A DNA stretch of 64,000 bases from Acidobacteriota bacterium (GCA_034667465.1 JAXDJV010000014.1:209-64208); one strand, 5' to 3'; numbered from the stretch's first letter, positions 1,798-54,712 are shown. The notes: generated from the sequence alone by a model not told the origin. Numbers and translations are program-made.

Positions 1798-4254
1798 ATG
1801 CGAATCAATGTCCCGTCGACCGCCGTCGGCGTCTTCCTGACTGTTGTCCTCGCGGCCCAGCCACTCGCAGCGCAGCAGACGTATCAGCATCCGCCGCGTG
1901 AGATCGTCGACGTTCTCGACGCACCGCCACCGCCGACGCCGCTGGTCAGTCCCGCCGGAAACGCGCTGATTCTTGCGACGCCGGTGCGCTATCGGCCGAT
2001 TTCCGATCTTGCTGAGCCGATGTTGCGCGGCGCGGGCACGCGCATCAATCCTCGCAACAACGGATCGCACCTCTTCGCCTACAACGTTGCGCTCAAGCTT
2101 CAACAGATTCCGGATGGTCCCGAGGTTCCGATCGCGCTTCCGGCAGGCGCGCGCGTCACCGATCCGCGCTGGAATGCCAGCGGTTCGCTGTTCGCGTTCA
2201 CCAATGTCACGGCGACTTCAGTCGAGCTGTGGGCTGGCGACGCTGCAGGCGCGAAAGTACATCGCGTTGAAGGCATTCGATTGAATCCTGCGCTCGGTTA
2301 CGCACTTCAATGGATGCCCGATCAGAAGACGCTGCTCATCAAGACCGTCCCCGAGCAACGCGGAACGCCGCCGTCCGAAACGGGTGCGCCGACAGGACCG
2401 CGCGTGGAAGACAGCAGCGGCGTCAAATCGGCGAGCAGCACATACGAAGCGGTGGAATTGCTCAAGACGCCGTATGACCGGGAAGCATTCGAGTACTACA
2501 CCACCACGCAGTTGGCGATGGTCGATGTCCTTTCCGGCAACATCACAAAGATCGGCAGTCCGGCGGTCATCACGAAACTGGTGCGGTCGCCTGATGGCCA
2601 GTATCTGCTTGTCGAGCGGTTGCTGACGCCTTACTCGTCGCTCCGAATGTTCAATCGTTTCGCGACCGAAGTCGAGATTTGGGACATCAGCGGAAAAAAA
2701 CTCGAGACGCTCGCACGTCAGCCGTTGGCCGAACAGGTGCCGGTCGACGGTGTGCGCGTCGGGCCGCGTGACCACGGATGGCGCCCGACCGCGCCGGCGA
2801 CGGTGGTGTGGGAAGAAGCGCTGGACGATGGCGATACCTATAAGAAGGTTCCGTATCACGACCGCGTAATGCTCAAGCCGATGGGCGGCACCGCCTCGGA
2901 GCTCATAAGAACGGAGCAGCGATTCGACAACATCAATTGGATCGAACGTGGCGGTCTGGCTCTGGTAACGGAAGTCGACTACGACAAGCGCTGGTTCAGG
3001 ACGTATCTCGTCGATGCGGACAATCGATCCGCTGCTCCGAAAGTGGTCTGGAGCCAGAGCCTTGACGATGGCTATAAGAATCCCGGCGAACCGGTACTGC
3101 GCAGGCTGGCGAACGGTTTCAATGCCGTACGCGAATTCAAAGGAGCGATCTTCACCTCCGGCGAAGGCGCATCGCCGGCCGGCAATCGGCCGTTTCTCGA
3201 TCGCGTCGATCTCCGCACATTGAAGACGGAGCGTTTGTTCCGCTCTTCGCCTGACAGCCTGGAGTCGTTTGTCGACTGGATCAATCCAGCCACCATGACG
3301 TTTCTGACGCGGCGCGAATCGATCGTCGATCCTCCCAATGTTTACCTTCGTTCGCTCGGCGCCGCTCTTCCGGCGAATACTGTGGAAGGGGAGACGCACT
3401 TCCGATCGACGTCACGGCAAATCACCCATTTCGTCGATCAGGCCACGCAGCTTCGCCGGATCTCGAAACGCCTCGTGACCTATCAGCGGCCCGATGGCGT
3501 GAAGCTGTCATTCACTCTTTATCTCCCGCCGGGATATCAGGCCGGGACGCGATTGCCGACCATTATCTGGGCATATCCGCTCGACTACACCGATCCGAAT
3601 GCAGCGGGGCAGGTCGCGGGAACAGCGCAAAACTACACGTCGGTCTTCGGTGCGTCGCCGATCTTCCTCGCGCTGGAAGGTTATGCGGTACTCGACGAGA
3701 CGGCGATGCCGGTCGTCGGACCGACGGAAACCGCATACGACACATTCATCGATCAGATCGTCGCCAATGCGAAGGCAGCGATCGATAAGGCGGTGGAGCT
3801 CGGAGTGACCGATCGTGACCGAGTCGGCGTCATGGGTCACAGTCACGGCGCGCTGATGACCGTGAATCTGCTGGCGTGGTCGGACCTTTTCCGCGCCGGT
3901 GTTGCGCGCAGCGGTGCGTACAACCAGACGCTGCGTCCGTTCGGTTTTCAGAACGAGCGGCGGACGTTGTACAAGGCGCCGGATACATACCTGAAACTCT
4001 CGCCACTGGTCCACGCCGATCGAATCAAAACGCCGCTGCTCATCATTCATGGCGAGCGCGATAACAATCCGGGCACCGTGCCGCTGCAGTCGGAAAAACT
4101 GTTCGAAGCGGTTCGCGGAGTCGGCGGAACGGTTCGCCTGGTAATGCTGCCGCTGGAGGCACACGGATATTTCGCGCGCGAGTCGGTCGAGCACACGCTC
4201 TACGAAACGCTGACATGGTTTGATCGGTATGTGAAGAACGCTCCGCCGCGGTGA
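1798..4254 (+). CDS. Secreted S9-family serine peptidase (prolyl oligopeptidase / dipeptidyl aminopeptidase-like)
   Basis: Signal peptide, then an N-terminal beta-propeller-like region and a C-terminal alpha/beta hydrolase domain. Nucleophile elbow GHSHGA, then D and H (catalytic triad). Confidence 0.85.
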   Translation: MRINVPSTAVGVFLTVVLAAQPLAAQQTYQHPPREIVDVLDAPPPPTPLVSPAGNALILATPVRYRPISDLAEPMLRGAGTRINPRNNGSHLFAYNVALKLQQIPDGPEVPIALPAGARVTDPRWNASGSLFAFTNVTATSVELWAGDAAGAKVHRVEGIRLNPALGYALQWMPDQKTLLIKTVPEQRGTPPSETGAPTGPRVEDSSGVKSASSTYEAVELLKTPYDREAFEYYTTTQLAMVDVLSGNITKIGSPAVITKLVRSPDGQYLLVERLLTPYSSLRMFNRFATEVEIWDISGKKLETLARQPLAEQVPVDGVRVGPRDHGWRPTAPATVVWEEALDDGDTYKKVPYHDRVMLKPMGGTASELIRTEQRFDNINWIERGGLALVTEVDYDKRWFRTYLVDADNRSAAPKVVWSQSLDDGYKNPGEPVLRRLANGFNAVREFKGAIFTSGEGASPAGNRPFLDRVDLRTLKTERLFRSSPDSLESFVDWINPATMTFLTRRESIVDPPNVYLRSLGAALPANTVEGETHFRSTSRQITHFVDQATQLRRISKRLVTYQRPDGVKLSFTLYLPPGYQAGTRLPTIIWAYPLDYTDPNAAGQVAGTAQNYTSVFGASPIFLALEGYAVLDETAMPVVGPTETAYDTFIDQIVANAKAAIDKAVELGVTDRDRVGVMGHSHGALMTVNLLAWSDLFRAGVARSGAYNQTLRPFGFQNERRTLYKAPDTYLKLSPLVHADRIKTPLLIIHGERDNNPGTVPLQSEKLFEAVRGVGGTVRLVMLPLEAHGYFARESVEHTLYETLTWFDRYVKNAPPR

Positions 4255-4259
4255 GCCAG

Positions 4260-5936
4260 TTATTCGCGCAGTACCTGATGCACGAATGCGATGGCGATCG
4301 AGCCTTCGCCGACGGCTGAGGCCACGCGCTTGATGTTGCCGCCGCGAACGTCGCCGATTGCGAAGACGCCCGGGAGACTCGTCTCGAGCAGATGCGGCTG
4401 CCTCTTGAGCGGCCATTGCGCGGTGTTGAGGTCCTCCGGTGTGAGATCGGGCCCGGTTCTGATGAAACCGCGATCATCGAGCGCCACGCAGTCGTCGAGC
4501 CATTTCGTTGCCGGCACCGCTCCGGTCATTACGAATACATGCCGGATATTCTCAACAGTGTCAGTGCCGGTGGTTTTGTCGCGGCTATGAACGCGTTCCA
4601 GATGCGTCTCTCCCTCGAGACCAATGAGCTGGCAGTTCGTTCTGACGTCGATGGCCGGATTGTCTTCAACGCGCCGCACGAGGTAGCGCGACATGGTCTC
4701 CGATAGTCCGCCCGAACGCACCAGCATGATCACGCGGCGCGCGTGGCCGGCGAGAAATACGGCCGCCTGTCCTGCCGAGTTACCTCCGCCGACGATGAGC
4801 ACATCCTCGCCTTTACATATTTGCGCTTCCATCGGTGTGGCGAGGTAGTAAACGCCGAGGCCGTTGAAGCGGGAGAGACCCTCGATCGGCAATCCTCGAT
4901 ATTCGGCGCCGGTGGCGAGAATGACCGTGCGCGCCACGACGCGCGTTTCGTGGTCGATCTCGATGGCGTACGGTCGTCGCTCGCAATTCAGGCGCGTCGC
5001 GCCTTTCGCGACGATCATCTGCGCGCCGAATTTCTCGGCCTGGCTGAATGCGCGGGTCGCCAGCTCCTGGCCGGTGATGCCGGAGGGGAAGCCGAGGTAG
5101 TTTTCGATGCGCATGCTGGAACCGGCCTGACCGCCGGGAGCATTCGCTTCGATCATCAGCACATCGAGACCTTCCGATGCGCCATACACGGCGGCGCCGA
5201 GACCGGCCGGACCTGCTCCAACGATCACGACGTCGCGGATGTGACCTTCGTCGATGTCGATGCCCTCGTTGAAACCGAGGCAATCGGCGATCTGCGCGTT
5301 GGTCGGATTCCGGAGCACGAATTCACCGCGACAGATCACGACCGGGATTTCGTCCGCCGAGACGTTCCATCTTTCCAGCGACTCCTGGGAGACTTCGTCA
5401 TTGTCGAGGTCGAGGTAGGTATGCGGGTGTGCGTTGCGCGACAGAAATTCACGAACCTGCAGCGTCCGCGGCGAGTACTGCGAGCCCAGCACGACGACGT
5501 CTCCGAAGCCGCGATCGATGAGTATCACGCGACGGAGGATGTACGCGCGCATGAAGATCTCACTGAGCTCGGCGTCGGTCTGCAGCATCGCGAGAACGCT
5601 CTCGCGTTCGATCTCGATGACTTCACCCGGCTCCGTCACGCGGATGCTTGCGAGGCTCCGCCTGCCGCTGACCAGATTCAGCTCGCCGCTGAACTGGCCC
5701 GGTCGATGGGTCGTGGCAATCTCTTCGCCGCTGCACGAGTTTCGTACGGCCACCAGCTCTCCGCTGAGGACGACGAAGGCCGGGTATTGATGCGCACCGG
5801 CCTCCATGAGGATCTCGCCGCGCTCGACCGTTCGACGCGTTCCATGCGTCGCGATGCGTGCGAGCTGCGCGGGTGTCAGAACCGGGAATACCTGCTCCTG
5901 CTGCGGCGCGACCGAGAGGGGAGTCGTAGCGGTCAT
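4260..5936 (-). CDS. N-terminal cyclic nucleotide-binding domain fused to a thioredoxin-reductase-like FAD/NAD(P) disulfide oxidoreductase
   Basis: The N-terminus has a cNMP-binding fold (GEILMEAGAHQYPAFVVLSGELVAV...FSGEL). It is followed by DVVIVGAGPAGLGAAVY and a second Rossmann motif (VIVGGGNSAGQAAVFL), and a C-terminal GDVRGG. Confidence 0.8.
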   Translation of the reverse strand: MTATTPLSVAPQQEQVFPVLTPAQLARIATHGTRRTVERGEILMEAGAHQYPAFVVLSGELVAVRNSCSGEEIATTHRPGQFSGELNLVSGRRSLASIRVTEPGEVIEIERESVLAMLQTDAELSEIFMRAYILRRVILIDRGFGDVVVLGSQYSPRTLQVREFLSRNAHPHTYLDLDNDEVSQESLERWNVSADEIPVVICRGEFVLRNPTNAQIADCLGFNEGIDIDEGHIRDVVIVGAGPAGLGAAVYGASEGLDVLMIEANAPGGQAGSSMRIENYLGFPSGITGQELATRAFSQAEKFGAQMIVAKGATRLNCERRPYAIEIDHETRVVARTVILATGAEYRGLPIEGLSRFNGLGVYYLATPMEAQICKGEDVLIVGGGNSAGQAAVFLAGHARRVIMLVRSGGLSETMSRYLVRRVEDNPAIDVRTNCQLIGLEGETHLERVHSRDKTTGTDTVENIRHVFVMTGAVPATKWLDDCVALDDRGFIRTGPDLTPEDLNTAQWPLKRQPHLLETSLPGVFAIGDVRGGNIKRVASAVGEGSIAIAFVHQVLRE

Positions 5937-6093
5937 GACGCTATCGTAATGCCGTGAGCGGCGGCGACGCGACCGGAGCGCGGAGCATGTTCGACTGGAA
6001 GCGGCGCGGGTCTGCTACACTCGATGAAGTCCCCGCTCCATCAATTCCCCGCTCCTTTTCGCACACCAGAGAAGAAAGGCAGGAACGATAGAT

Positions 6094-6237
6094 ATGGCAG
6101 ATCCGAAAGACGAACTCATCCACAAGGTCCAGATCCAGGATATCGAGAAACCGGAGAACAACGAGCTTGATGACTCGCAGCTCGACAAGGTTTCCGGCGG
6201 CGGCAGCTACGGGTACGACCCGGGTAACGGAAGCTGA
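6094..6237 (+). CDS. 47-aa RiPP/bacteriocin-like precursor with double-glycine leader (not in ORF track)
   Basis: Hand translation gives MADPKDELIHKVQIQDIEKPENNELDDSQLDKVSGGGSYGYDPGNGS. ELDDSQLDKVSGG fits the L-x3-EL-x2-V-x-GG leader consensus. The short core GSYGYDPGNGS lacks Cys. AGGA lies 9 nt upstream of the ATG. The gene is convergent with the sulfotransferase gene. Confidence 0.55.
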   Translation: MADPKDELIHKVQIQDIEKPENNELDDSQLDKVSGGGSYGYDPGNGS

Positions 6238-6239
6238 CG

Positions 6240-7049
6240 TTACAACACGATGACCCGGCGCGCGTTCTGGCCGGGGACATCCCAGAAACTACGATCCTGC
6301 TGGCTGAACAGATCGGCCGGCAGGATCGTGTTCCTCTGGTTCGGCCGCACGCGCGACGCCACTCTGTGCAGGCCCGGCATCCCTAAACGTTCATCGAATT
6401 CCGGCTCGTCGTATTCGACCTGTTCGAAGTCATGCGCGAACGGCTCTTCTCCGAGAAACTCGTAGAGGCGCGTCATCACCTGGGCGGGCTGCTCCGTCAG
6501 TGACTCGTACCGAACGACGATCATGCGATCCGCCTGTTCGCCGCTCCATGCCTGCCGCAGCGCCTGCAGCGCCGGACCGACCGGACCACTCTTCATCATC
6601 GACTCGACGCGCGTATAGACATTGGCCGCGGCGTCAGCGGGAAACAGTTTTCCGCGGCGCAGCGGTGCAGCCTGCACGCGGCGCTCGAAACTGTCGAGGA
6701 TCCATGCCGGGCTTCGGACGCACGCGATGACTCTGGCGTCCGGCCACAGCTCGTGAATGGCCGGCAGTTGCGCACACCAGCCGCGGTTCGTGTCGAAGAT
6801 GACCTTCTCTCCCGCGACATCCTCATAGAACGTTTCGACGAGCGAGCGCGTAACTCCCGTGCGCTGCCGCTCGGTGAGAAACATCGCGTACTCGTTCGAC
6901 TCGCTCATCGCGCGCAGCAATGATTCGAACAAGCCAAGAAGCGGGCCCGACATCGCGGCGTGAAACCGCGGGTTCTGTCGAAGGATCGCCGCCAGCAGCG
7001 TCGATCCGGAGCGTGGCAAACCCGAAATGAAATGGATCTTCATCGTCAT
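6240..7049 (-). CDS. Sulfotransferase-family protein (PAPS-dependent, Sulfotransfer_3-like)
   Basis: Start taken at MTMKIHFISGLPRSGSTLLAAILRQNP, which is a 5'-PSB-like P-loop. About 270 aa. The start overlaps the stop of the upstream LanC-like gene by 1 nt. Confidence 0.75.
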   Translation of the reverse strand: MTMKIHFISGLPRSGSTLLAAILRQNPRFHAAMSGPLLGLFESLLRAMSESNEYAMFLTERQRTGVTRSLVETFYEDVAGEKVIFDTNRGWCAQLPAIHELWPDARVIACVRSPAWILDSFERRVQAAPLRRGKLFPADAAANVYTRVESMMKSGPVGPALQALRQAWSGEQADRMIVVRYESLTEQPAQVMTRLYEFLGEEPFAHDFEQVEYDEPEFDERLGMPGLHRVASRVRPNQRNTILPADLFSQQDRSFWDVPGQNARRVIVL

Positions 7050-7918
7050 CAAACCGCCATCATCCGAACATTCACGTTCATCAGCGCGAGAGCAACGCCT
7101 GCCTCGCCATCCATCAGACAATCTCCGCCGGGATCAGGCGTCCATTCGCCGCGCTCGACGATCGCCAGCGTTCGCTCGTACCAGAGATTCGCGCGCACCT
7201 CATCCAGCTGGCTGAACATCCGCGTCATCCCGGCCGCCCCGCGGCGCAGCGATGCATCGGTGATCGTCTCCGGCGAAACTGCACACGCTTCCTCGAGAAG
7301 ACGGGACGCTTCGTGGTGATCCTGATCGCGGCCTGTGATGCGCGCGCAACGCGACCAGGTGGCCGCTGAATCGGACGGCAGCGCATCGAGAACACGCTCG
7401 AGCATCGATGGCGATGCAACTTCGGCAAGCAGATACATCACCCCTCGCGCCGAGCGCGCGCGATCGAGTTGCGATTCGAGATGATCGACCACGAGTTTGA
7501 TACCCGCCGCATGGTTTCGTTCCAGAAAGTAGATGCCGATTCCGGCAAGACCGCTCGCCGCGTCGAACGATCCTCGCCAACGCCCGCGCTCCAGTTCGCG
7601 AAGCAGCGCGGCGTCGGTGTCTTCATTGAGATCATCGGATACGCCAAGCATGCGCGACACGATTTCCACGGTCCAGCCCAGTCCCGCGAGACCTCCGCAG
7701 AGTCCCCACTGTTTCGTCGAGCAGAGCTCGTCCGCGCGAGCGATGGCGACGTTGAGATGCCGGATCGCAGCCTGCTTCCAATGCCGTTCGCTCGTGGCGA
7801 GATGCACGTTCGCGAACAGCAGCGCCTTCGCCGCACTGCGCGCCGGCAACGGCTCCTCCGCGAGCAAAGACTCAGCGAGCCTTCCGAGCACCGGAGTTTT
7901 CGCGTCGTGATTACGCAT
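7049..7918 (-). CDS. LanC-like (lanthionine synthetase C-like) alpha-toroid protein; start uncertain
   Basis: Repeated GxAGxG motifs (WGLCGGLAGLGWTVEIV, ASGLAGIGIYFLE, DGEAGVALAL). The start is placed at MRNHDAK, just after the upstream ABC gene stop. The first 45 codons of the ORF-track version overlap that gene. Confidence 0.5.
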   Translation of the reverse strand: MRNHDAKTPVLGRLAESLLAEEPLPARSAAKALLFANVHLATSERHWKQAAIRHLNVAIARADELCSTKQWGLCGGLAGLGWTVEIVSRMLGVSDDLNEDTDAALLRELERGRWRGSFDAASGLAGIGIYFLERNHAAGIKLVVDHLESQLDRARSARGVMYLLAEVASPSMLERVLDALPSDSAATWSRCARITGRDQDHHEASRLLEEACAVSPETITDASLRRGAAGMTRMFSQLDEVRANLWYERTLAIVERGEWTPDPGGDCLMDGEAGVALALMNVNVRMMAV

Positions 7919-10748
7919 ACTGCCTGGCGATGAGTCGCGAGAACAGTCCGCCTGCTCCTGCGAGCTCATCGAACGCTCCTTCTTCCACGATCTTCCCGCG
8001 ATCCATGACAAAAATCCGATCTGCCTTCCGAATCGTCGACAGGCGATGCGCAATCACGATCCGTGTCGCGCTGCTCAGCTCCAGCGTGCGCGTCACCACT
8101 TCCTGCGTCCGATTATCGAGCGCGCTCGTCGCTTCATCGAAGAGGATGATGCGCGGCTTGCGCACGAGCGCGCGGGCGATCAGCAGGCGCTGACGCTGCC
8201 CGCCGGAAAACGTACTCGTGCCGCTCTCGGAGATCAGCGTGTGCATCTCCATCGGCATCGCTCGTATGTCATCCGCCAGGCCGGCCGCCTCCGCCGCCTC
8301 CCACGCATCATCGAGCGTCAGCGACGACGACGAGCCGACGATGTTCGTGAAGATGTCGCCGCCGAGAAGCCGGCTGCTTTGCAGCACGACTCCGAGCTGA
8401 TGGTTGCGAATGGCCGAGATGTCGAGCGATGCGAGATCCTGTCCGTCGTAGTAAACGGCGCCGGTCTCCGGCGATTCGAATCCGAGCAGCAGACGGAGGG
8501 TCGTCGACTTGCCGGAACCTGATGGACCGACGAACGCGACAAACTGGCCGGGTCCGGCGCGGAACGAGACGTCGTCGAGCACGACCGGTCCGTCGGCGTG
8601 ATAGCGAAACGTCAGATGCGCGCATTCGATGAGCCCATTGAGCGCACCCGGATCGTTCTTCGTCTCCGTGACTTCCGGCGCCGTCTCCAGAATCGGCGCC
8701 GACTTCTCCATCACAGCTGCCGCGGAGACGATGCCGGTCGCAGCGTTGCTCAGCGCCACCACGCTGGCGAACAGCGTTCCGAACGCCGCGCTGAAGGCGA
8801 CGAAGTCGCCGGTGCGGAACGACTCGCCTTTTCCGAACAGCAGCCAGCCGCCCATGGCGAAGAGGAGCGCGGTGCAGAGTACCGGCAACACATCGTTGAA
8901 GACGTTGATCGCCGCTTTGAACGATCCGGCGCGATGCGCCTCCGCGCGCTGTTTCGAAAACGCCGCGCTCCACACTGCGAAGGCGCGTCGCTCCGACGCG
9001 GAGACGCGCAGTTTGGCGATGCCGGCGATCATCTGAAAGACGAGGCCGGAAACGCGCGCGTGCGCTTCCTGCTGCAGGCGCTCGTGGCGCAGCGATTCGC
9101 GGATGAGGAGTCCGTTGATCGTCCCCGCAACCGCGATCAAAGCAACGGCCATCAGCGCCAGCCGCCAGTCGTAATAGAAAAGGATGATCACGTTCACCGC
9201 GGAAAACGCGCTGGTGAGGACGACGGTGAGCGTCGACGTGCCGATGACTTCCTGCACGGTCTGAATCGCCGCGGCGCGCTGGCTGAGATCGCCCACCGCG
9301 TAGCGGCGGAAGAAGGGAACCGGAAGAGAGAGCAATCTGTCGACGAGCGCCGTCTGCAGTGCGGCGCTGATCCGCCCTTCCGTTCGCGTCAGCGCGAATG
9401 CCCGCGTGATGTCGAAGAGTGCCGCGCCGACTGCCGTGGCGCTGAGCGCGACGAGCACCGTGACGAAGTCCACCGATCGCGCATTCGGGATGACGAGGTT
9501 GAAGATGTGCGCGGTGGCCAGCGGGATGGCCAGCGCGAGAAGGCCGCCGGCGAGCGCTGCGACCACGATTCCGGCAAGGTCCGACCTGACGAGCGGTGCG
9601 ATGAACGAAACGAGATCGTGCACTTCGCGCGCGCGATCGGGGAGCGGGCGATAGAAGGTGACGGCGAATGGCTGCAACTCGGCGGCGACCGCCGGCGTGA
9701 CCGGTCGTCTGCCTCCGCTTTTCGGATCGTGAAGTACATAAGACCCGCGGCCCGCCGGAAGGAGCGCGACGGGCGACGCATCTTCCTTCAGATATCCGAG
9801 CAGCGAGCCGGCATCGCTCCGCCACCAGAGATCGCGCAATGCCACGCGCCGGCTTCGCACGCGCGACGTTCTGCAAATCGCCGGAAGCAGATCGCTCGCG
9901 TGCCGCACCTCCCATCGCGGAGGATCGCGAAACTCGATGCCGGCGACGGAACCGATTGCGCGGCACGCCGCCATCATCGGATCGCGCATGACCGACGCAT
10001 CAACCGCCGTCGTTTCCGGTTCGAGAACCGACGCCAGGTTGCCGAGTGCGTGTTGCCACATCCGCTGATCGGACGCCGCTCTGGCCTGCAGCCGCTGCGT
10101 CGTCTGCTGGTCTTCGATGTCGATCGCACCGGAGAGACCTGCCTGCATCAGATCGATGAGTACGCCGAGGCCGGATGTGTCGCCGCCGTCGCGCAGGTGT
10201 TCCTCGGTGTCGCGCGTTTCGAAGCGCGCATCGTTTACAGCAGCGATCCAGAGACCGTGAAGCGGGACCCATCCATGTTCGGGACCGAGCTCGAGCCACG
10301 AGCGCGCGCCGATCCGCGTCGAACCTTCGATGTGCCGGATCCAGATGGTTCGCTCGCGAACGCTTGCATGCTTTCCACGCCGCAGAATGAATTGCTGTCC
10401 TGGTGCGAGCAGCTCATGCATGGCAACGTGATCGGGCGAAGCGAGGAGCGGTGCGAGACTGGCGACGAGACGATCGATCGCCGCTGCATGAACGACATCG
10501 GCCAGCGCGGAAACCGGCACGCTGCGAAGACGCGTGCTGCCATGACCCACCGCGGTCAGCACGAATCGCGCGTCCGGCGGAGGAGGCGCCGGCGGAATCA
10601 GATCGCCTGCCTCGGCGGACCAGAGATAGCGCCGCGCTCCATAGCCTTCCGCGAGGAGCGGCACGGCGAAGACATCGACACTTCCTTCGACGACGAGCCA
10701 GGCGCAGCCGGCGTCATCGAGAGGCAGCGGCGAACCGTCGCGCTCCAT
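7911..10748 (-). CDS. NHLM/NHLP-type bacteriocin-export ABC transporter (permease + ATPase) with an N-terminal cNMP-binding-like extension
   Basis: 945 aa. About 300 aa of N-terminal beta-roll/cNMP-like domain, then 6 TM helices, then Walker A GPSGSGKST, signature LSGGQRQRL and Walker B ILFDEATSALD. It matches the peptidase-less partner of a C39-peptidase ABC transporter in NHLM systems. Confidence 0.8.
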   Translation of the reverse strand: MERDGSPLPLDDAGCAWLVVEGSVDVFAVPLLAEGYGARRYLWSAEAGDLIPPAPPPPDARFVLTAVGHGSTRLRSVPVSALADVVHAAAIDRLVASLAPLLASPDHVAMHELLAPGQQFILRRGKHASVRERTIWIRHIEGSTRIGARSWLELGPEHGWVPLHGLWIAAVNDARFETRDTEEHLRDGGDTSGLGVLIDLMQAGLSGAIDIEDQQTTQRLQARAASDQRMWQHALGNLASVLEPETTAVDASVMRDPMMAACRAIGSVAGIEFRDPPRWEVRHASDLLPAICRTSRVRSRRVALRDLWWRSDAGSLLGYLKEDASPVALLPAGRGSYVLHDPKSGGRRPVTPAVAAELQPFAVTFYRPLPDRAREVHDLVSFIAPLVRSDLAGIVVAALAGGLLALAIPLATAHIFNLVIPNARSVDFVTVLVALSATAVGAALFDITRAFALTRTEGRISAALQTALVDRLLSLPVPFFRRYAVGDLSQRAAAIQTVQEVIGTSTLTVVLTSAFSAVNVIILFYYDWRLALMAVALIAVAGTINGLLIRESLRHERLQQEAHARVSGLVFQMIAGIAKLRVSASERRAFAVWSAAFSKQRAEAHRAGSFKAAINVFNDVLPVLCTALLFAMGGWLLFGKGESFRTGDFVAFSAAFGTLFASVVALSNAATGIVSAAAVMEKSAPILETAPEVTETKNDPGALNGLIECAHLTFRYHADGPVVLDDVSFRAGPGQFVAFVGPSGSGKSTTLRLLLGFESPETGAVYYDGQDLASLDISAIRNHQLGVVLQSSRLLGGDIFTNIVGSSSSLTLDDAWEAAEAAGLADDIRAMPMEMHTLISESGTSTFSGGQRQRLLIARALVRKPRIILFDEATSALDNRTQEVVTRTLELSSATRIVIAHRLSTIRKADRIFVMDRGKIVEEGAFDELAGAGGLFSRLIARQYA

Positions 10749-10750
10749 CG

Positions 10751-12913
10751 CTACGCCTCCCTCGCCAGCAGCGCGTAATCACCCTGCACATCTGCCACGA
10801 GCTCCGCGTGCCGTCCGCGCTGTACGACCTTCCCTTCGCTCAACACGAGAATTTCGTCCGCATCACGAATCGTCGACAAGCGGTGCGCAACCGTTACGCA
10901 CGAACATCCGCGACGCCGCACGTTCCTTTCAATCAGCGCCTCCGTCACCGCATCAATCGCGCTCGTCGCCTCATCGAGGACGAGCACCCGCGGACCGGCG
11001 ACCAGCGCGCGGGCGATCTCCAGCCGCTGCCGCTGTCCTCCGCTGAAGTTCGATCCTCCTTCTTCAATGCGCGCGTCGTAGCCGCCGCGCCGCGACATGA
11101 TCTCGTCGTGGATGCAGGCGTCTTTGCATGCCTGAATGAGCACGGCGTCGGGAACGGTGGCGTCCCACAGCGTGAGGTTCTCGCGCACGGTGCCTGCGAA
11201 AAGCGCGATGTCCTGATCGACGACGGCGACGGAGCTCGCGATCTGTGCGCGCGGCAACTCGCCGCGAGCGCGGCCATCGAACAGCACCTCTCCCTGCCAC
11301 GGCTGATACTGACCGGTGATGAGACGCACGACCGTCGACTTTCCGCAGCCCGACGGGCCGACGAGCGCCACGCGCGCGCCCGGCGTGAGACGAAAGCTGA
11401 CGTTACGAATCAGCGGCTCATCGAGTCGCGAATAGCCGAACGTCACGCCGCGGAACTCGAGGTCTCCCGCCAGCCGCTCGGTGACGACTTCGCTGCCGCC
11501 GTCGTCGCGCGCCACCTCCGGATCGAGCGGCGCGCCAAGCACGTCGTCGATGCGGTTCATGTTTCCCTCGATCATCTGCAGATCGGCGGCGAGGCCGACG
11601 AGGTTCGTCACCGGCAGAAAAAAGCTCGCCGCGAGCGTCTGAAACGCGACGAGCATGCCCATCGTCATCTCGCCCTGCGCAACGCGATAGCCGCCCGCGA
11701 CCAGCACCAGTACTTTGGCCATGGCGATCACGAAGGTCGGAACGGTGAGGAAGAGTTGCGTGATGCGATTCAGAGCCTGCTGCGCGTTGACCAGTTTCGC
11801 GTGGTGACCGGCCCATCGCGCGAAGAGATCGGATTCCGTTCCGGTGGCCTTGACTCCTTCAATCGTCGTAAGCCCGGCGCCGATCGTGCCGGCGAGCTTC
11901 GACTGCTCCTGCAGCATGCGCCGATAGCCATCAACGCGCATCCGATTCACCGCGGCCGTCACGGCGGCGACGACGACCACGGCGATCATCGCGATCATCG
12001 TCAGCGAGACGTCGTAGGAAAGCATCAGCAGCGGGAAGAAGACGACGAGCAGCGCGTCGATCAGCGTCGATGCAAGACGGGAGGAGAGAAACGCCGCGAC
12101 CTTGCTGTTGAGCGCGACTCGATTCGTGAGATCGCCGACAGATCGCCCGGTGAAAAACTCGATCGGAAGTTGCAGCACGTGCCAGAGAAATGTGCTCGCG
12201 CCGACCGCGGCGAGTTTCGTCTCCAGTCGCAGCAGCGCGTGCCGCTGCACCCAGGCGAGACCGCCTCGCAGCAATGCGGTCAGCAACAGTCCGATGACGA
12301 GCGGACGAAGCCATCCTTCCGCGTGCGCCACGAGAACCTTGTCGACGAAGAGACGCGCGAAGGCGGGGACGATCAGTCCCGGAACCACGAGGCAGAGGCC
12401 GGCGATCAGCGCAAACAGCACCGCGGTGTTCGAGCCACGCAACCGTTGACGCAGAGTGGAAATCAGACGAGGCCGCGAGCCTCCTTTCCGGAAGCCGGAG
12501 TCCGGACGAAACGTCAGCACCACGCCGGTGAACGAGTCGTCGAACTCCTGCTCGCTGACCACGCGCGGTCCCGAAGCGGGATCGTTCAGGTAGTAGCGGC
12601 CGTTGCCGTGTCCTTCGAGGACGAGGAAGTGATTGAAGTTCCAGAAGAGCACCGCGGGCAGCGGTACATCCGCGAGCTGGTTCAGCTCCTTCTTGAATCC
12701 TTTGGACTCGAGGCCGTAGTTGCGCGCGGCGCGAAGCACGTTCGATGCTTTCGATCCGTTGCGCGACACGCCGCACGCCGAGCGCAATTCCTCCAGCGAA
12801 ACGATGCGGCCGTAGTAGCCGAGGATGATGGCCAGGGAGGCGGCGCCACACTCGATCGTCTCCATCTGGAGAACCGTCGGAGTGCGGACTCGTCGGACAG
12901 GCTCAGAGCCCAA
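10751..12913 (-). CDS. Peptidase-containing ABC transporter (N-terminal C39 Cys peptidase + TMD + ABC ATPase)
   Basis: C39 motif VLQMETIECGAASLAIILGYYG...NHFLVL, then a TM domain, then GPSGCGKST, LSGGQRQRL and LVLDEATSAID. Confidence 0.85.
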   Translation of the reverse strand: MGSEPVRRVRTPTVLQMETIECGAASLAIILGYYGRIVSLEELRSACGVSRNGSKASNVLRAARNYGLESKGFKKELNQLADVPLPAVLFWNFNHFLVLEGHGNGRYYLNDPASGPRVVSEQEFDDSFTGVVLTFRPDSGFRKGGSRPRLISTLRQRLRGSNTAVLFALIAGLCLVVPGLIVPAFARLFVDKVLVAHAEGWLRPLVIGLLLTALLRGGLAWVQRHALLRLETKLAAVGASTFLWHVLQLPIEFFTGRSVGDLTNRVALNSKVAAFLSSRLASTLIDALLVVFFPLLMLSYDVSLTMIAMIAVVVVAAVTAAVNRMRVDGYRRMLQEQSKLAGTIGAGLTTIEGVKATGTESDLFARWAGHHAKLVNAQQALNRITQLFLTVPTFVIAMAKVLVLVAGGYRVAQGEMTMGMLVAFQTLAASFFLPVTNLVGLAADLQMIEGNMNRIDDVLGAPLDPEVARDDGGSEVVTERLAGDLEFRGVTFGYSRLDEPLIRNVSFRLTPGARVALVGPSGCGKSTVVRLITGQYQPWQGEVLFDGRARGELPRAQIASSVAVVDQDIALFAGTVRENLTLWDATVPDAVLIQACKDACIHDEIMSRRGGYDARIEEGGSNFSGGQRQRLEIARALVAGPRVLVLDEATSAIDAVTEALIERNVRRRGCSCVTVAHRLSTIRDADEILVLSEGKVVQRGRHAELVADVQGDYALLAREA

Positions 12914-14153
12914 GCCACTTCCTCAGACCCGGAATCACGAGTGCGATCGGCCGGCGCTGCTCGAGGGTGATCTTCGCCTGCAACAGCGTTCCGCTGCCGA
13001 ATGAGAGATCGGGACCCTGCCTGCTCGTCCAGTGGAAACCGCTCGGCGTCGTGCGATCGCGCTCCAGTTCCACGGAGACGACATACGCCGCGCCGCGCGC
13101 GGTGAAGTCGCGAACGAGCGTGTCGTTGCGCAGCAGCACATTCATGGCCGTCGGTGAGAGCGGGCTGTCCGAGACCGAGACGACGTGGCCGAGCATGTAG
13201 CCGTACTCTTCCCAGGGGACGCCGGCCGGCGACATCTGCACGCGCATACCGCGTCGCACCTGCTTCGCCGCGCTGCCGATGAACGTCAGTCCCACGAGCG
13301 GCGCGTCTGCGCGTTCGAGCGTGATCAACGGCTGTCCGCGCGTGACGAGGGCGCCGTCGCCGGTGAGCAGCTCGACGACTTTTCCCGCGCCGGGACTGCT
13401 GATCGTTCCCGACTCCGCCAGCTGACTTTCGAGCGTTTCGATCTGACGCCGCGATTCCGCCGCGGCCTCCTCGAGGGAGAAGACACTCTGACTGGCCTGT
13501 GTCTCCACCGATCCTTCACGCGCGGTCAGCGCTTTGAGCTGCGACTCTCCGGTGGCAAGCGTCTGCCTGGCATCATCGAGCTGCTGAACCGCATCCTGGA
13601 ACGTCTGCTGATTGATGAGGCCCGCGCGAAGCAGTTCCTGATTCGCGGCGATGCGCGTTTCGAGATAGCGGATTCGCGCGCGCGTCGACTCCTGCGTCTG
13701 CAACGTCTGCTGTCGCTGCTGGGCGATCGTGGCGCGCTCCAGATCGGCATCGCGGGCAATCTTTCCGCGCGTCACATCGCGATTGCGTTCGAGCTCAGCG
13801 AGGCGGGCGCGCGCCTGGCGAAGGTTGTCCTCGACGTCCGCCTGCACGAGCCGGCCGATCGGCTGGCCGGCCTTCACCGTGTCGCCGACATGCACGTGAA
13901 GATCGCGCACCACGCCCGCGGCACTCGATTCGACGTTGACGAGTCCCGACCACCGCAACATCAGCCCTTCTCCCTCGAGCGAGTCGGGGACCGCGCCGAA
14001 GACACCCCACGCGATTGCAGCGACAACGACTGCGCCGAGTCCGGCGAGTGCGAACCAGATGCGCGGCGTCGTCACCTCCAGTAGTGTGTCGAGCCGCTCG
14101 GGGCTGGAGAGCCGTTCGAGCGAAGCACGCCGGAAGATCGATTCGTCTTTCAT
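12903..14153 (-). CDS. HlyD-family membrane fusion / secretion protein
   Basis: N-terminal TM anchor, long coiled coil and C-terminal beta-domain. It is translationally coupled to the C39-peptidase ABC transporter gene (11-nt overlap). Confidence 0.8.
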   Translation of the reverse strand: MKDESIFRRASLERLSSPERLDTLLEVTTPRIWFALAGLGAVVVAAIAWGVFGAVPDSLEGEGLMLRWSGLVNVESSAAGVVRDLHVHVGDTVKAGQPIGRLVQADVEDNLRQARARLAELERNRDVTRGKIARDADLERATIAQQRQQTLQTQESTRARIRYLETRIAANQELLRAGLINQQTFQDAVQQLDDARQTLATGESQLKALTAREGSVETQASQSVFSLEEAAAESRRQIETLESQLAESGTISSPGAGKVVELLTGDGALVTRGQPLITLERADAPLVGLTFIGSAAKQVRRGMRVQMSPAGVPWEEYGYMLGHVVSVSDSPLSPTAMNVLLRNDTLVRDFTARGAAYVVSVELERDRTTPSGFHWTSRQGPDLSFGSGTLLQAKITLEQRRPIALVIPGLRKWLGL

Positions 14154-14683
14154 TGACCGGCGGAAAGGCGCCTCAGCATGCGGCTGAATCGATCGCCGGC
14201 CATCGATACCGAGTCGAGAAAGTTTGCATCGAGCTCATCTTCCTCGAGCATGCCCGCACTTCGCGTCGATCCCTTGCGCTCATTCGCGGTGCGCAGGCGA
14301 TCGGAGAGCATCATGGCCATCGCCTTGTAGAAGCGCGCCGCGAACGCGTCATCGCTCCTGAGCCGGCCGGTGAGCGTCTCGCGCGGCACCTGAAGGATCT
14401 CGCATCGCGTCGTTGCTTTGACGGTCGCCGATGGGAGCGCCGCGCTGATGAACGACATCTCTCCGACGATTTCCCCCGGACCAACGCGGCCGAGCTCGGC
14501 GCCTGCCGCTGCCTCCAGCGTCACCACGAGGTCGCCGTCGAGCACGATCGAGATTGCATCGGCGGCCTTCCCTTCGGCGATCAACGTCCCGCCGGAGGCA
14601 AGTGTGACCTTCTGCCCATTCGCCGCGAGCCAGTCGGCGTCGAGATCCGTGAGCTGTCCCAGAATGAACAGAACGTTCTTCAT
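14150..14683 (-). CDS. Stand-alone cyclic nucleotide-binding domain protein
   Basis: 177 aa. GEIVGEMSFI...A matches the cNMP phosphate-binding cassette. ATGA overlap with the HlyD gene start. Confidence 0.7.
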   Translation of the reverse strand: MKNVLFILGQLTDLDADWLAANGQKVTLASGGTLIAEGKAADAISIVLDGDLVVTLEAAAGAELGRVGPGEIVGEMSFISAALPSATVKATTRCEILQVPRETLTGRLRSDDAFAARFYKAMAMMLSDRLRTANERKGSTRSAGMLEEDELDANFLDSVSMAGDRFSRMLRRLSAGQ

Positions 14684-14792: not shown

Positions 14793-16727
14793 ATGATTCA
14801 GATTGGAATGAAGCTCGGCCCCTACGAGATCGTTGCGTCCGTAGGCGTCGGGGGGATGGGTGAGGTCTATCGCGCGGTCGATGAGCGTCTTGGCCGGACC
14901 GTCGCCATCAAGATTCTCCTCACGGAATCGTCAGGCAGCGCGGACCTGAAAGAGCGCTTCGACCGCGAGGCGCGCGCCATCTCCAGGCTCAATCACCCGA
15001 ACATCTGCGTGCTGTACGACATCGGCCATCAGGATGGAATCGACTACCTCGTGATGGAGTACCTCGATGGCGAAACGCTGGCCGACGCGCTCGCCCGCGG
15101 ACCGCTTCCGCTTCCACAGGTACTCCGCATCGGCGCGGAAATCGCCAATGCGCTCGATCGCGCCCATCGTGATGGAATCGTTCACCGCGATCTCAAGCCG
15201 GGCAACATCATGCTCACCCGATCCGGCGCGAAGGTGCTCGACTTCGGCCTGGCCAAAGAGACTCCGATGCTGCTCGGCGCGAACGACGCGACGGCGCGCA
15301 TGGCGTTGACGGCCGAGGGAACGATCGTCGGCACGCTGCAATACATGGCGCCCGAACAACTCGAAGCGCGTCCTGCCGACTCTCGCACCGACCTCTTCGC
15401 GCTCGGCGCGATTCTCTACGAGATGACCACCGGGCACCGCGCCTTCGATGGAGTCAGTCCCGCCAGCATCATCACGGCCATCATGAGCCGCGATCCGGAG
15501 CCGATGTCCGCATGCACACCGATGACGCCGCCGGCGCTCGATCAACTCGTGCGCCGTTGCCTGGCGAAGCGGCAGGACGATCGACTTCAGAGCGCGCACG
15601 ATCTCTCCATCGCGCTCCAGGACCTTCGCGACGAAACGGCGTCCCATCTCCGGTCAGGTTTCAGCTCGAGTCCGAATTCGAATCTCCTGGCAACGCCATC
15701 ACCGCGCCTGAACCGGCGCCGTACATTCTTCGTGGCTGGATCGATCGCGGCCGCACTCCTCCTCGCCGGCAGCGGATGGTGGATCGGTCAATCGCGAAAA
15801 AGCCCGGGCGCGGTGTCGACTGCAAGAACGGTCGCCGTGCTCCCATTCGCCACGCTCGGCGTCGACAACGCTCACACGTATCTCGGTGGCGCTCTTCCGG
15901 ACGAGATCACGACGATCCTCAGCAACAGCCACAACCTGTCGGTGCGCCCCTTCTCGGCCACACGACACCTCGGCGCGGATACCGATCCGCAGGAAGCGGC
16001 GCGAAAGCTCGATGTGGGCGGAATCATCAGCGGTCATCTTCTCGCCGAGGGCGAGCGCCTGTCGATCACACTGGAGGCGATCGACGTCAGCGAGAACAAG
16101 CTGCTCTGGCGTGACGTGTTCGACAGCCCGGCTTCAGATCTCCTGTCGATTCGTCGCGAGCTCTCGACGCGCATTCAGAACAATCTGCTGCCCGAAGCTG
16201 GCGGGCGGAACGGCCACTCCGGAACAGAGCCAGCCGACGAGCGGCGAGGCCTACGCGCTTTATCTCCGCGCCACGGTGGCATCGACCGATCCCGCGCCCA
16301 ACAAGGAGGCTGTGGCGATGCTGCAGCGGGCGGTCACGCTCGATCCGAAGTTCGCACTGGCCTGGGAAGCTCTGGCGCAGCGCGAGTACTTCGACTCCAG
16401 TTTCTCCAACGGAGGTCCGTCTGCACTGGCGCGCATGCAGGATGCGGCGAAGCGCGCGCTGGCCATCGATCCCGATCGTGTCAATCCGGCCCTGCGCCTC
16501 ATTTCCATGAATGCCGAAAACGGAAGAATCGCCGATGCGTACCACGATGCCGTGGCGCTCGTACGCCGCCGGCCCGACAGCGCCGACGCTCATTTCACGC
16601 TGTCGTACGTGATGCGCTACGGCGGTGCCCTCAAAGAAGCGGCGGACGAATGCAATCGCGCATGGGCCATCGATCACGGCAACCGCAGCGCGCGTTCCTG
16701 CGCCATCGTGTTCATGGGTCTCGGTGA
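14793..16727 (+). CDS. Ser/Thr protein kinase (Hanks-type kinase domain plus TM segment); the frame is credible only to about 16195, then a frameshift
   Basis: GxGxxG VGVGGMGEVYRA, VAIK, HRDLKPGNIML, DFGLAK and APE motifs. After about nt 16195 the translation becomes low-complexity. The real continuation is in another frame (see next feature). Confidence 0.7.
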   Translation: MIQIGMKLGPYEIVASVGVGGMGEVYRAVDERLGRTVAIKILLTESSGSADLKERFDREARAISRLNHPNICVLYDIGHQDGIDYLVMEYLDGETLADALARGPLPLPQVLRIGAEIANALDRAHRDGIVHRDLKPGNIMLTRSGAKVLDFGLAKETPMLLGANDATARMALTAEGTIVGTLQYMAPEQLEARPADSRTDLFALGAILYEMTTGHRAFDGVSPASIITAIMSRDPEPMSACTPMTPPALDQLVRRCLAKRQDDRLQSAHDLSIALQDLRDETASHLRSGFSSSPNSNLLATPSPRLNRRRTFFVAGSIAAALLLAGSGWWIGQSRKSPGAVSTARTVAVLPFATLGVDNAHTYLGGALPDEITTILSNSHNLSVRPFSATRHLGADTDPQEAARKLDVGGIISGHLLAEGERLSITLEAIDVSENKLLWRDVFDSPASDLLSIRRELSTRIQNNLLPEAGGRNGHSGTEPADERRGLRALSPRHGGIDRSRAQQGGCGDAAAGGHARSEVRTGLGSSGAARVLRLQFLQRRSVCTGAHAGCGEARAGHRSRSCQSGPAPHFHECRKRKNRRCVPRCRGARTPPARQRRRSFHAVVRDALRRCPQRSGGRMQSRMGHRSRQPQRAFLRHRVHGSR

Positions 16728-50427: not shown

Positions 50428-50901
50428 TCAGACGGAAAGCGCGCGAACCTGCGCGGTCTCCGGAATTCCATTCGATGTGGCACGGCCGAAACGCCGCTGA
50501 AGCGAGTGACGTACACGCCGCAACACGGCGAGGGCCTGCTGTGTGAGAGCGCCGCGCGAATCGACGGCGGCGCAACGGCCGTCGCGCTCGACGCCGGAGA
50601 TCCGGCCGAGAACGGCGCTGCCGGCGACGATGGCGTCGGCGGTAAGTGAGTTGTCGCCGCGCGTGCGAACGCGCAGCTCGCCGCGCGTCGCGTCGAGCTC
50701 GATGATTCGATGCGCGGTCAGGCCGCGCGGCGCGGCGGTGAGCACGACGTCGCCGACGCGCAGCGATTCTTCATCGCAGCGCGTGACGTGCACGAATTCG
50801 CCGCTGCGAATCGTCGGAATCATGCTGTGTCCCGACGCGCAGAACCGCGCGTCGTAGCCCGCGGCCAGCACGTCCTGCAGCGTGTTGACGAACATCGTCA
50901 T
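50428..50901 (-). CDS. S24/S26-family (LexA/signal-peptidase-like) Ser peptidase, candidate leader peptidase
   Basis: ASGHSMIPTIRSGEFVHV...GDVVL resembles the GxSMxPT nucleophile motif. 157 aa. Translationally coupled (ATGA) to the HprK-like gene. Confidence 0.55.
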   Translation of the reverse strand: MTMFVNTLQDVLAAGYDARFCASGHSMIPTIRSGEFVHVTRCDEESLRVGDVVLTAAPRGLTAHRIIELDATRGELRVRTRGDNSLTADAIVAGSAVLGRISGVERDGRCAAVDSRGALTQQALAVLRRVRHSLQRRFGRATSNGIPETAQVRALSV

Positions 50902-51805
50902 CCGTTCCTCCGCACCACCTCGACGACGCTGTCGTCGGGTGTGAAGCGCAGCAGCCTGACCGGCACGCGCGCGCAGATGTCCGCCAGAAACTCGATCGTG
51001 AATGCGAGTGCGGCGGGGTCATAGAAAGGGGGAAAGGTGCAGCCGAACAACATTGCCGACGCGGTTGCCGGCGCGAGCGACTCGAGCTCGGTGAGGGGTG
51101 CCTGGCGCAGGATGTAAACGCCGGCCAGCGGCGCGGTCGACGCCGACGATAGCTCCGCTTCGCCGTGCCATGGCGTGCCGAACATCCGCAGCACGCCGTC
51201 CACGTCGCGCACAATCACGCGATCGTCGCTGACGATGTCGATGCCTGCTTCGCGCAGCCACACTTTGCCGGTGGTGGTCTTGCCGGCGCCCGACTGGCCG
51301 ACGAACAGATGGCCGCGGCCGTCGCGATCGATGACGCCGCATCCGTGCAGCTCGACGCCGCGTCCGCGGCCGAGGAGATTCGCGACGAGCACTTCATCGA
51401 GCGGATAGTCGAGCGGATGCATCGTCGGAAGATCGGCATCGGCGCTCAGCAGAATGCGTCCCGACGTGAAGCTCGAATTCAGCAGCGCCACTTTGTACGG
51501 CGCGTCGCCGAACATCGCCGAATGACACTCGATCCGATAGCCGTCGCCGTCCGCGTAAAGACGCCAGACGCCGCCCGATTCGAAGAGCAGCTCACCGCGC
51601 GGATGGAGGTCGCGTTCGTCGAGGCGATCGACCGTCAGCGTCAAATCGGCGTCAGCGAGCGGTGAAACTTCGAAGCGGCCGGTGGTCGCGGAAAGTCCGC
51701 GGCCGAGCGACTGATCGGCGTAGTGCAACGCGATGCCGAGCCCTCCGATCGTGAGAAAGGAGGAGCTGATCACAACCGCGTGCTCGCCGGAGACGCTCAT
51801 GACCC
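50898..51805 (-). CDS. HPr kinase-related (HprK C-terminal-domain-like) peptide kinase
   Basis: Real start at MSVSGEHAVV. P-loop region LHGCGVIDRDGRGHLFVGQSGAGKTTTG is characteristic of HprK-related kinases in RiPP clusters. The ATG overlaps the stop of the precursor gene. Confidence 0.8.
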
Positions 51806-51975
51806 GGCGGTCTGACAGGGGCCGGTCACGAAGCAGTTGCCGCCGCTGGCGCCCGCCGCCGATGCCGACTTGCAGAAGCCGAGCACCGCTTCTTCGGGAC
51901 GCAGCGGAAAGCGCCGCACTTCGGGCTTCTCGTACGGTTTCTTCTCTTCGGTATGACCTTCGTTCTGCATGCTGA
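51802..51975 (-). CDS. 57-aa RiPP precursor peptide (not in ORF track): MQNEGHTEEKKPYEKPEVRRFPLRPEEAVLGFCKSASAAGASGGNCFVTGPCQTAGS
   Basis: Strong RBS (AAGAGGA 6 nt upstream). It lies between the rSAM/SPASM gene (7 nt upstream) and the HprK-like gene (ATGA overlap). Charged leader, then a Gly/Ala/Ser-rich core with 3 Cys and a C-terminal Ser. Confidence 0.6.
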
Positions 51976-51981
51976 TCCTCT

Positions 51982-53244: not shown

Positions 53245-53302
53245 AAATTGTCGATGGACCCTTTTGGACCAAAGGGTGTCGGGAAAAGATTATTGCACCG
53301 TA

Positions 53303-54681: not shown

Positions 54682-54712
54682 AGTTCGCACCTGACCGTCT
54701 AACATTCTGATC

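Follow-up and report, generated by a model that had tools for sequence, protein, structure and literature searches.

The 64,000-nucleotide stretch JAXDJV010000014.1:209-64208 from an Acidobacteriota bacterium (assembly GCA_034667465.1), referred to here in its full length as the window, contains a compact gene cluster that pairs a short double-glycine (GG) leader peptide with a sulfotransferase homologous to RaxST of Xanthomonas. RaxX is the founding tyrosine-sulfated ribosomally made, post-translationally modified peptide (RiPP), or 'sulfatyrotide', and to our knowledge the RaxX/RaxST system of Xanthomonas is the only one from which bacterial tyrosine sulfation is known. The evidence presented below makes it likely that the window encodes a tyrosine-sulfated GG-leader RiPP system of the same kind. 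As a preliminary description of this DNA had proposed, the peptide gene is convergent with an operon of six minus-strand genes, which overlap or lie a few bases apart at most, and all seven genes are present (Table 1). The stop codons of the peptide and sulfotransferase genes are separated by 2 nt, and the GC content is ~59–67% in 1-kb windows over the first 22 kb. Two annotations of that description have to be revised. The peptide gene, reported as absent from the open reading frame (ORF) track, is called in public records, where the identical protein appears as 'hypothetical protein QOI24_2265 [Acidobacteriota bacterium]'. The LanC-like gene is present, but its start at 7969 is less probable than the ATG at 7918, which gives the 289-residue form called by JGI.

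Table 1 Genes and candidate promoter element of the sulfotransferase–peptide locus, in window coordinates. PAPS, 3'-phosphoadenosine 5'-phosphosulfate; cNMP, cyclic nucleotide monophosphate; PCAT, peptidase-containing ABC transporter; aa, amino acids.
Feature	Position	Strand	Remarks
Precursor peptide gene, 47 aa	6094..6237	+	36-aa double-glycine leader ending VSGG, then predicted 11-aa core
RaxST-family PAPS-type sulfotransferase, 269 aa	6240..7049	-	Sulfotransfer_3 1.8e-20; GLPRSGST (Arg13), Ser120
Degenerate LanC-fold protein, 306 aa from 7969	7049..7969	-	LANC_like 1.4e-09, N-terminal part of profile only
NHLM-type ABC exporter subunit 2 (ABC2), 945 aa	7911..10748	-	Permease + ATPase; NHLM_micro_ABC2 TIGR03797
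NHLM-type PCAT (ABC1)	10751..12913	-	NHLM_micro_ABC1 TIGR03796 + Peptidase_C39
HlyD-family periplasmic adaptor, NHLM export system, 416 aa	12903..14153	-	NHLM_micro_HlyD TIGR03794
cNMP-binding protein, 177 aa, first operon gene	14150..14683	-	cNMP_binding PF00027 4e-15
Candidate promoter element TGCTACACTCG	6013..6023	+	~70 nt upstream of peptide start; weak evidence

The sequence of the precursor is MADPKDELIHKVQIQDIEKPENNELDDSQLDKVSGGGSYGYDPGNGS, and its ATG is preceded, 9 nt upstream, by AGGA. The leader, MADPKDELIHKVQIQDIEKPENNELDDSQLDKVSGG, carries hydrophobic residues at positions -12 (Leu), -7 (Leu) and -4 (Val) from the double glycine, in the context L(-12)DDSQL(-7)DKV(-4)SGG followed by GSY, and this is the spacing expected of PCAT substrates. 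The core, GSYGYDPGNGS, is rich in Gly and Tyr, lacks Cys and contains the conserved pair Tyr39-Gly40; its small size and its acidic, Gly-rich composition would suit a signal or ligand released from the cell more than a bacteriocin that acts on membranes. The precursor matched no Pfam or NCBIfam model at E≤0.01, and a word-indexed protein search with the 47-residue sequence returned only the identical protein and one protein of 83% identity. Since this type of search was too poor, the peptide family was recovered from the DNA flanks of sulfotransferase homologs, at loci that are designated below by L numbers. In a close relative, L088, JGI independently called the same 47-residue gene; it differs by three substitutions, all conservative, and again 2 nt separate it from a sulfotransferase gene whose identity to that of the window is 97% in protein and 94% in DNA.

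In a BLASTP comparison with RaxST of Xanthomonas oryzae pv. oryzae PXO99A, a protein of 267 residues whose sequence was taken from Liu et al. 2019 (PMC6637879, Fig. S6), 259 of the 269 residues in the window sulfotransferase aligned with 42% identity (E 4e-66). This agrees with the earlier suggestion that the sulfotransferase, the peptidase ABC transporter and the HlyD protein parallel raxSTAB. Arg13 in the 5'-phosphosulfate-binding motif GLPRSGST aligns to RaxST Arg11, and Ser120 in the 3'-phosphate-binding motif ILDS aligns to RaxST Ser118, both of which are essential for RaxST. Among 30 homologs, Ser120 is invariant and Arg13 is kept in at least 90%. The fold resembles that of tyrosylprotein sulfotransferases (TPSTs), which are the best structural matches. 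The family is sizeable: 50%-identity clusters contribute 260 representatives at E≤1e-30, and 90%-identity clusters over 7,400 sequences at E≤1e-5. The Pfam match is to a generic family (Table 1), and the sole NCBIfam match is the Nod-factor sulfotransferase NoeE, which scores 41.8 bits where the cutoff is 500. The identity that would have told against the original proposal, that of a polysaccharide or lipid sulfotransferase, was considered and rejected: the NoeE match is far under its cutoff, and no glycan genes are conserved around the sulfotransferase. From this comparison we infer that the enzyme would O-sulfate a tyrosine of its cognate peptide.

An indication of what that cognate peptide may be comes from gene neighborhood. 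We assembled ~90 loci encoding relatives of the sulfotransferase, mostly from Acidobacteriota, by exact-protein look-ups, a scan of species-representative genomes (12 loci) and a metagenome scan (69 loci). The 12 genome-scan loci come from 11 Acidobacteriota metagenome-assembled genomes (MAGs), belonging to Solibacteraceae, Bryobacterales/Bryobacteraceae, Terriglobia and Acidobacteriaceae, and from one Chloroflexota MAG of the Limnocylindrales. We filtered the 723,561 bp of related loci plus window mechanically for ORFs that are small and acidic and end in a double-glycine motif, and obtained 41 matches. The peptide–sulfotransferase arrangement is far beyond chance, because 40 of these 41 lie within 2.3 kb of a sulfotransferase gene. 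The 47-residue ORF is thereby shown to have many homologs in a conserved pairing, and the possibility that it was an isolated ORF lacking both homologs and a conserved neighborhood can be set aside. Twenty-eight distinct GG-leader peptides were found close to a sulfotransferase gene. A Tyr stands at core position 2–4 in 24 of them, the next residue being Gly in 23 cases and Ser in one; in three further members the cleavage motif is G-A or G-S. When 10 peptides of the window's type (type A, defined below) were aligned with one lanthipeptide precursor, no column other than Tyr39 was invariant. Besides that of the window, examples of cores are GAAYGYSGNYGA, GTYGFGNDDGN, GYGYGADKSSGS, GEGYGSDGSENS, GGTYGTDLTYGN and GYGPYAPFGSY.

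Gene order varies around this pair. The same seven genes occur in L001, where the sulfotransferase is 75% identical to that of the window, and in L088; rearranged versions occur in L002-L004, L007, L008, L010, L032-L035 and others; and minimal units of sulfotransferase and peptide without a local exporter occur in L012, L013, L041 and L051. Because such bare pairs exist without an exporter, the enzyme appears to be tied to the peptide rather than to the transporter. The bare pair of L013, from a Bryobacterales MAG (6073-8790, plus strand), has unrelated neighbors and lies downstream of genes for a HupE/UreJ_2-domain protein and a DUF3500 protein.

That the pairing survives rearrangements and the lack of a local exporter is difficult to reconcile with a reading in which the NHLM system exports the peptide unmodified, as a double-glycine bacteriocin or signal, and the sulfotransferase acts on another substrate, for instance a polysaccharide, a lipid or some other protein, having been co-located by regulation or history. 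The fold of the enzyme, closest to sulfotransferases of peptide tyrosine, argues in the same direction, as does the core, whose one conserved feature is a Tyr set at a constant distance from the cut, like that of RaxX; nor are glycosyltransferase or polysaccharide genes conserved around the sulfotransferase across the loci. We regard this alternative as unlikely, although NHLM exporters need no sulfotransferase, several sulfotransferase homologs have no detectable neighboring peptide, the only NCBIfam match is the weak one to NoeE, and Liu et al. 2019 supposed that raxST homologs outside Xanthomonas act on other substrates (PMC6637879).

The loci fall into two architectures. Type-A leaders, including that of the window, contain a K-V-x-I-x-D-[VI] box followed by ...EL(T/D)E.(E/Q)..K(V/I).GG, and in these loci the peptide and enzyme genes converge, with a LanC-like gene next to that for the sulfotransferase. 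Type-B leaders, found mainly in Bryobacterales-like loci, read MEPNDE...EEI.PE(E/D)A.K(V/I).GG; here the peptide gene shares the strand of the sulfotransferase gene and follows immediately downstream, and there is no LanC-like gene. The LanC-like gene was detected in 14/15 type-A loci, as against 0/13 type-B loci, the exception being L022, in which an unrelated gene is inserted. Both types often then carry a cNMP-HlyD-ABC1-ABC2 export set.

Since searching solved structures by sequence with the LanC-like protein gave only chance matches, a fold search was needed, for which the protein was folded with database-match sequences only. The alpha/alpha-toroid fold is kept, and 278 of 306 residues align to MadC. 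An alignment revealed that the zinc ligands (the Cys of WCxG and the Cys-His of CHG) and the catalytic His (of AHG) are absent from the window protein, whereas canonical acidobacterial LanCs keep AHG, WCYG and LCHG. All short forms linked to the sulfotransferase have other residues or gaps at these sites, such as LRRG for LCHG. A Pfam search of the operon and its flanks found no Lant_dehydr domain. The LanC-like partner named in the preliminary description is thus upheld as a fold, but not as an active lanthionine cyclase, a candidate function that we rejected on the loss of the zinc ligands and catalytic His, the lack of a dehydratase and the Cys-free core. With LanB and the LanC active site missing and no Cys in the core, the window system can form no thioether by the known mechanism.

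The same features make it scarcely probable that the sulfotransferase instead generates a leaving group on Ser or Thr, as the CurM and OLS sulfotransferases do in polyketide pathways, for a subsequent LanC-type elimination, ring formation or both, a scheme that would apply especially to the Cys-rich members of the family. The window core, like many others, has no Cys, and the LanC-fold protein has neither the Cys/Cys/His zinc site nor the catalytic His; the cores have no conserved Ser or Thr, as opposed to the Tyr, which never varies in the type-A alignment; RaxST and the TPSTs resemble the enzyme far more than activating sulfotransferases do; and type-B loci combine sulfotransferase and peptide without any LanC-fold protein. 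The Cys-rich subtype itself, with cores GGYGCPACGSNPCGCGS, GGNYGVCPACGGQPCCCGS and GGGYGPCPACGCSPCACNG and the motif YG.CP.CG..PC.C, occurs in L001 (9604-9762), L007 (11908-12123), L010 (11866-12030), L019 and L032. Its loci contain the zinc-less LanC-fold protein and no dehydratase, and the product (CPxCG..PC.C) might be disulfide-rich or metal-binding. A Cys-rich ORF beside the sulfotransferase gene of L081, with a Sec-type signal and no GG leader, was not counted.

What the LanC-fold protein may do in place of cyclization is suggested by its pattern of conservation. It has only 16 database matches, with 25–50% identity beyond close relatives, and its length ranges from 232 to 367 residues across loci, the C-terminal half being variably deleted. 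Rapid evolution of this kind, and the dispensability of the protein in type-B loci and in L022, would be expected of a binding protein or scaffold more than of an enzyme with a conserved active site. They render very unlikely a variant of the tyrosine-sulfation reading in which the protein is an active, zinc-independent enzyme that crosslinks Tyr, epimerizes residues or handles disulfides. In favor of such an enzyme, the complete toroid is kept, D119 and Y147 are invariant across degenerate and canonical LanCs, and the LanC-fold gene is translationally coupled to the sulfotransferase gene. We propose that the LanC-fold protein is a leader-binding adaptor for the K-V-x-I-x-D-[IV] box, which characterizes the leaders of the loci that contain it.

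A possible origin of this protein is indicated by a cluster in the Bryobacterales MAG OY969810.1 (L005/L006/L011), where a sulfotransferase 58% identical to the window enzyme is encoded beside LanB, two canonical LanCs, HlyD and a C39 ABC transporter. No LanA gene was found near the sulfotransferase in L005, at 7.7-11.6 kb; the precursor lies ~6 kb downstream. In L006 (16376-16708, minus strand) it is a 110-residue, Cys/Thr-rich peptide (MKKRNRLGLKKVTLRDLDDGSLGFAGG, then TQSQQYGTCGDFC...) with a K-V-x-L-x-D-L leader box, as in type-A leaders, and Y-G six residues past the double glycine. The predicted product of this cluster is a class I lanthipeptide that carries sulfate. On the simplest reading, the window system derives from sulfated class I lanthipeptide clusters that lost LanB, while the LanC site decayed and the core became shorter. 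Recognition of the shared leader box may be why a LanC remnant was kept, an explanation that we find plausible but put forward only tentatively.

The NHLM-type assignment of the exporter is confirmed by all three of its components, which exceed their equivalog cutoffs: ABC2 scores 859.7 bits (cutoff 709.4), the PCAT 1025.7 bits (cutoff 853.3) and the HlyD adaptor 304.7 bits (cutoff 156.2). ABC2 has its Walker A and signature motifs, and the C39 domain of the PCAT (Peptidase_C39, 6.7e-34) has the catalytic residues Gln16, Cys22, His95 and Asp111, as read from the sequence. The N-terminal 255 residues of ABC2 form an extension of unmatched type; the cNMP-like domain previously placed there was not detected by Pfam (E≤1) or by BLASTP against the cNMP-binding protein. 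The latter scores 146.3 bits against TIGR03896 (cutoff 161.05), over profile positions 140-317, the C-terminal half, only, and has one cNMP domain where the TIGR03896 architecture is full-length; it appears to be related to this 'bacteriocin-type transport-associated' family. A cNMP gene also heads the export genes in L001-L004, L008, L017, L018, L043 and L053. With its 36-residue GG leader and no family match, the precursor does not qualify as an NHLP- or Nif11-type peptide.

RaxX provides a template for how these parts may work together: its leader ends in GGG and is cleaved by the PCAT after G39, Y41, one residue past the GGG, is sulfated, and modification is cytoplasmic, preceding cleavage and export. 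In the window system, the 47-residue precursor would be made on the ribosome, in the cytoplasm, and the RaxST-family sulfotransferase, with PAPS, would O-sulfate Tyr39, three residues past the double glycine, while the leader is still attached; Tyr41 could possibly be sulfated too. The zinc-less LanC-fold protein would make no thioether rings and may bind the leader box and present the precursor to the sulfotransferase, the exporter or both. The C39 domain of the PCAT is predicted to cut after Gly36, and ABC1, ABC2 and HlyD would export an anionic sulfopeptide of ~11 residues, GSY(SO3)GYDPGNGS, with an outer-membrane channel presumably encoded outside the locus. The cNMP-binding protein may gate or regulate export.

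Several observations weigh against this proposal. The residue aligned to the TPST catalytic Glu is not conserved ('GEE' of TPST1 corresponds to 'AMS' in a phmmer alignment); His30, Asp86 and Glu122, invariant or nearly so among the 30 homologs, are candidates for the catalytic base. The Tyr context, Gly/Ser-Tyr-Gly, has no acidic neighbor of the sort typical of TPST and RaxST substrates (D-Y in RaxX). Four of the 28 neighboring peptides have no Tyr (SVRG, MVRF and two L018 peptides), and some homologous sulfotransferases with long flanks have no peptide under our filters, for example L014, L044 and L056-L058. The peptide gene is convergent with the operon, with 2 nt between the stops and no terminator detected. 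Finally, sulfation, and with it a +80 Da modification, is a prediction from gene comparison, and the role suggested for the LanC-fold protein is drawn from co-occurrence.

Further details of these exceptions and of transcription were noted. The two L018 peptides (11196-11595, plus strand) lie between a RaxST homolog and NHLM export genes, and their Tyr-free cores, WEKQNGGEF and HGAKIVQPC, depart from the Y-G rule; the L018 RaxST homolog is apparently frameshifted, its tblastn match being split. Several peptide-less contigs end directly past the LanC-like gene. In L028, a gene for a 413-residue transposase-like protein (2728-3969, minus strand), IS110-type by reading of its sequence, stands directly past the sulfotransferase gene at the expected site of the peptide gene, which appears to have been lost in this contig. 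Scans for sigma-70 promoters and intrinsic terminators around the peptide gene and the operon start detected none. The element TGCTACACTCG resembles an extended -10 box (TGnTAnnnT) and is identical in L088, where most of the surrounding upstream DNA differs; the sigma-70 consensus scan found nothing at this site.

The genes flanking the cluster, at 4260-5936 and 14793-16727, are not conserved beside it in L001 and were rejected as cluster members. The first (minus strand), divergent from the peptide gene, encodes a 558-residue protein in which a cNMP-binding domain and a weak glutaredoxin-like stretch are fused to a pyridine nucleotide-disulphide oxidoreductase, and is probably outside the system. 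In L088 a 9-kb insertion separates this fusion gene from the cluster; the insertion encodes a 1494-residue sulfotransferase-glycosyltransferase fusion, a methyltransferase, a 908-residue protein and UbiA. The second (plus strand), divergent from the first operon gene, encodes a 644-residue Ser/Thr protein kinase. A kinase gene also lies beside the operon in L088 and L089, and another ~5 kb from the cluster in L002-L004; this proximity could reflect synteny or a regulatory link. Elsewhere in the window, the region 50428-55888 (minus strand) may be a second RiPP locus unrelated to the sulfotransferase cluster. It contains a 57-residue ORF at 51797-51970, MQNEGHTEEKKPYEKPEVRRFPLRPEEAVLGFCKSASAAGASGGNCFVTGPCQTAGS, which starts 12 nt past the end of a radical SAM gene (51982-53244; PF04055, 5e-18), and nearby genes for an S24-like peptidase (50428-50901) and an NTP_transf_5 protein (53600-55888); a 435-residue ORF that overlaps the 57-residue one (50898-52205) has no Pfam match. 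A 2294-residue ORF at 43525-50409 (minus strand) has five DUF11 repeats and a C-terminal, gingipain-type Peptidase_C25 domain.

If the proposal is correct, the window locus and ~30 distinct relatives would supply the peptide partners that raxST homologs outside Xanthomonas had seemed to miss. They would form a second, directly testable family of bacterial sulfotyrosine peptides, from an abundant and poorly cultured soil phylum, as well as a set of short natural substrates with which RaxST-type enzymes could be engineered. The cluster would further offer a LanC apparently repurposed as the non-catalytic partner of a RiPP system, and an evolutionary bridge to class I lanthipeptide clusters that share the sulfotransferase family and for this reason are predicted to be sulfated. 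Much less probable is the broadest version of the idea, namely a widespread, hitherto unrecognized class of very short secreted sulfotyrosine signals or ligands in soil Acidobacteriota and at least one Chloroflexota MAG, a bacterial counterpart of the plant sulfopeptide hormones PSK and PSY, with x-sY-G cores of 9-19 residues, cNMP-gated export, a LanC turned adaptor and descent from sulfated class I lanthipeptide clusters.

Comparison with known systems helps to define what may be new here. In a survey by Liu et al. 2019, raxX and the raxX-raxSTAB cluster were confined to Xanthomonas, and raxST homologs of ~40% identity in other phyla had no raxX partner and were presumed to have other substrates (PMC6637879). 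RaxST-seeded genome mining by Wang et al. 2024 yielded no novel RiPP clusters (PMC11143521). The claim that a system of the present kind is undescribed is borne out for the open-access and bioRxiv literature, in which we found no description of an acidobacterial sulfotransferase-peptide family. Like raxX-raxSTAB, the window cluster has a homologous sulfotransferase of the same length and with the same PAPS motifs, a GG(G) leader, a Tyr near the cut, and C39 ABC and HlyD proteins. Unlike it, the cluster lies outside Xanthomonas, in Acidobacteriota; its peptide gene is convergent with the operon; its exporter is a three-part NHLM system with a second ABC subunit and a cNMP-binding protein; and it adds the zinc-less LanC-fold protein.

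The peptides differ as well. The window core, at 11 Gly/Tyr-rich residues, has S-Y-G in place of D-Y and does not contain the RaxX/PSY motif (DY...NPKHDP), stopping shortly after its Asn without the PKHDP half. That Asn lies six residues past the Tyr (Y-G-Y-D-P-G-N), as in PSY1 (Y-G-D-P-S-A-N) and RaxX (Y-P-P-P-G-A-N). Other members of the family do not keep this Tyr-to-Asn spacing, and their cores share only x-Y-G. Cross-kingdom PSY mimicry by the window core is a long shot, and the precursor would seem to work like RaxX while not being a RaxX ortholog.

Other RiPP systems share single components with the window cluster. It resembles the NHLM module of NHLP/Nif11 systems in its above-cutoff TIGR03794, TIGR03796 and TIGR03797 proteins and in the TIGR03896-related cNMP protein that heads the operon, but differs in its short, 36-residue GG leader and in having a sulfotransferase as tailoring enzyme. 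Class I lanthipeptide clusters, unlike the window, encode LanB and a LanC with intact zinc ligands and catalytic His, and the window core has no Cys. As in the sulfonated class II lanthipeptides, a PAPS-type sulfotransferase would tailor Tyr in a RiPP. However, the enzymes of that pathway, SslST and SscST of Streptomyces, which act with LanM, are reported to have no detectable sequence similarity to RaxST, and SslST, whose closest structural relative is TPST1, is leader-independent and needs a pre-formed thioether ring (PMC11143521), whereas the window enzyme is a RaxST homolog that presumably acts on a linear, leader-bearing peptide. Because RaxX/RaxST is known and the acidobacterial family is undescribed in the literature searched, the window appears to represent a new peptide family rather than wholly new chemistry: the chemistry and logic would be those of RaxX, and the new elements are the peptide family, the phylum, the export module and the accessory protein.

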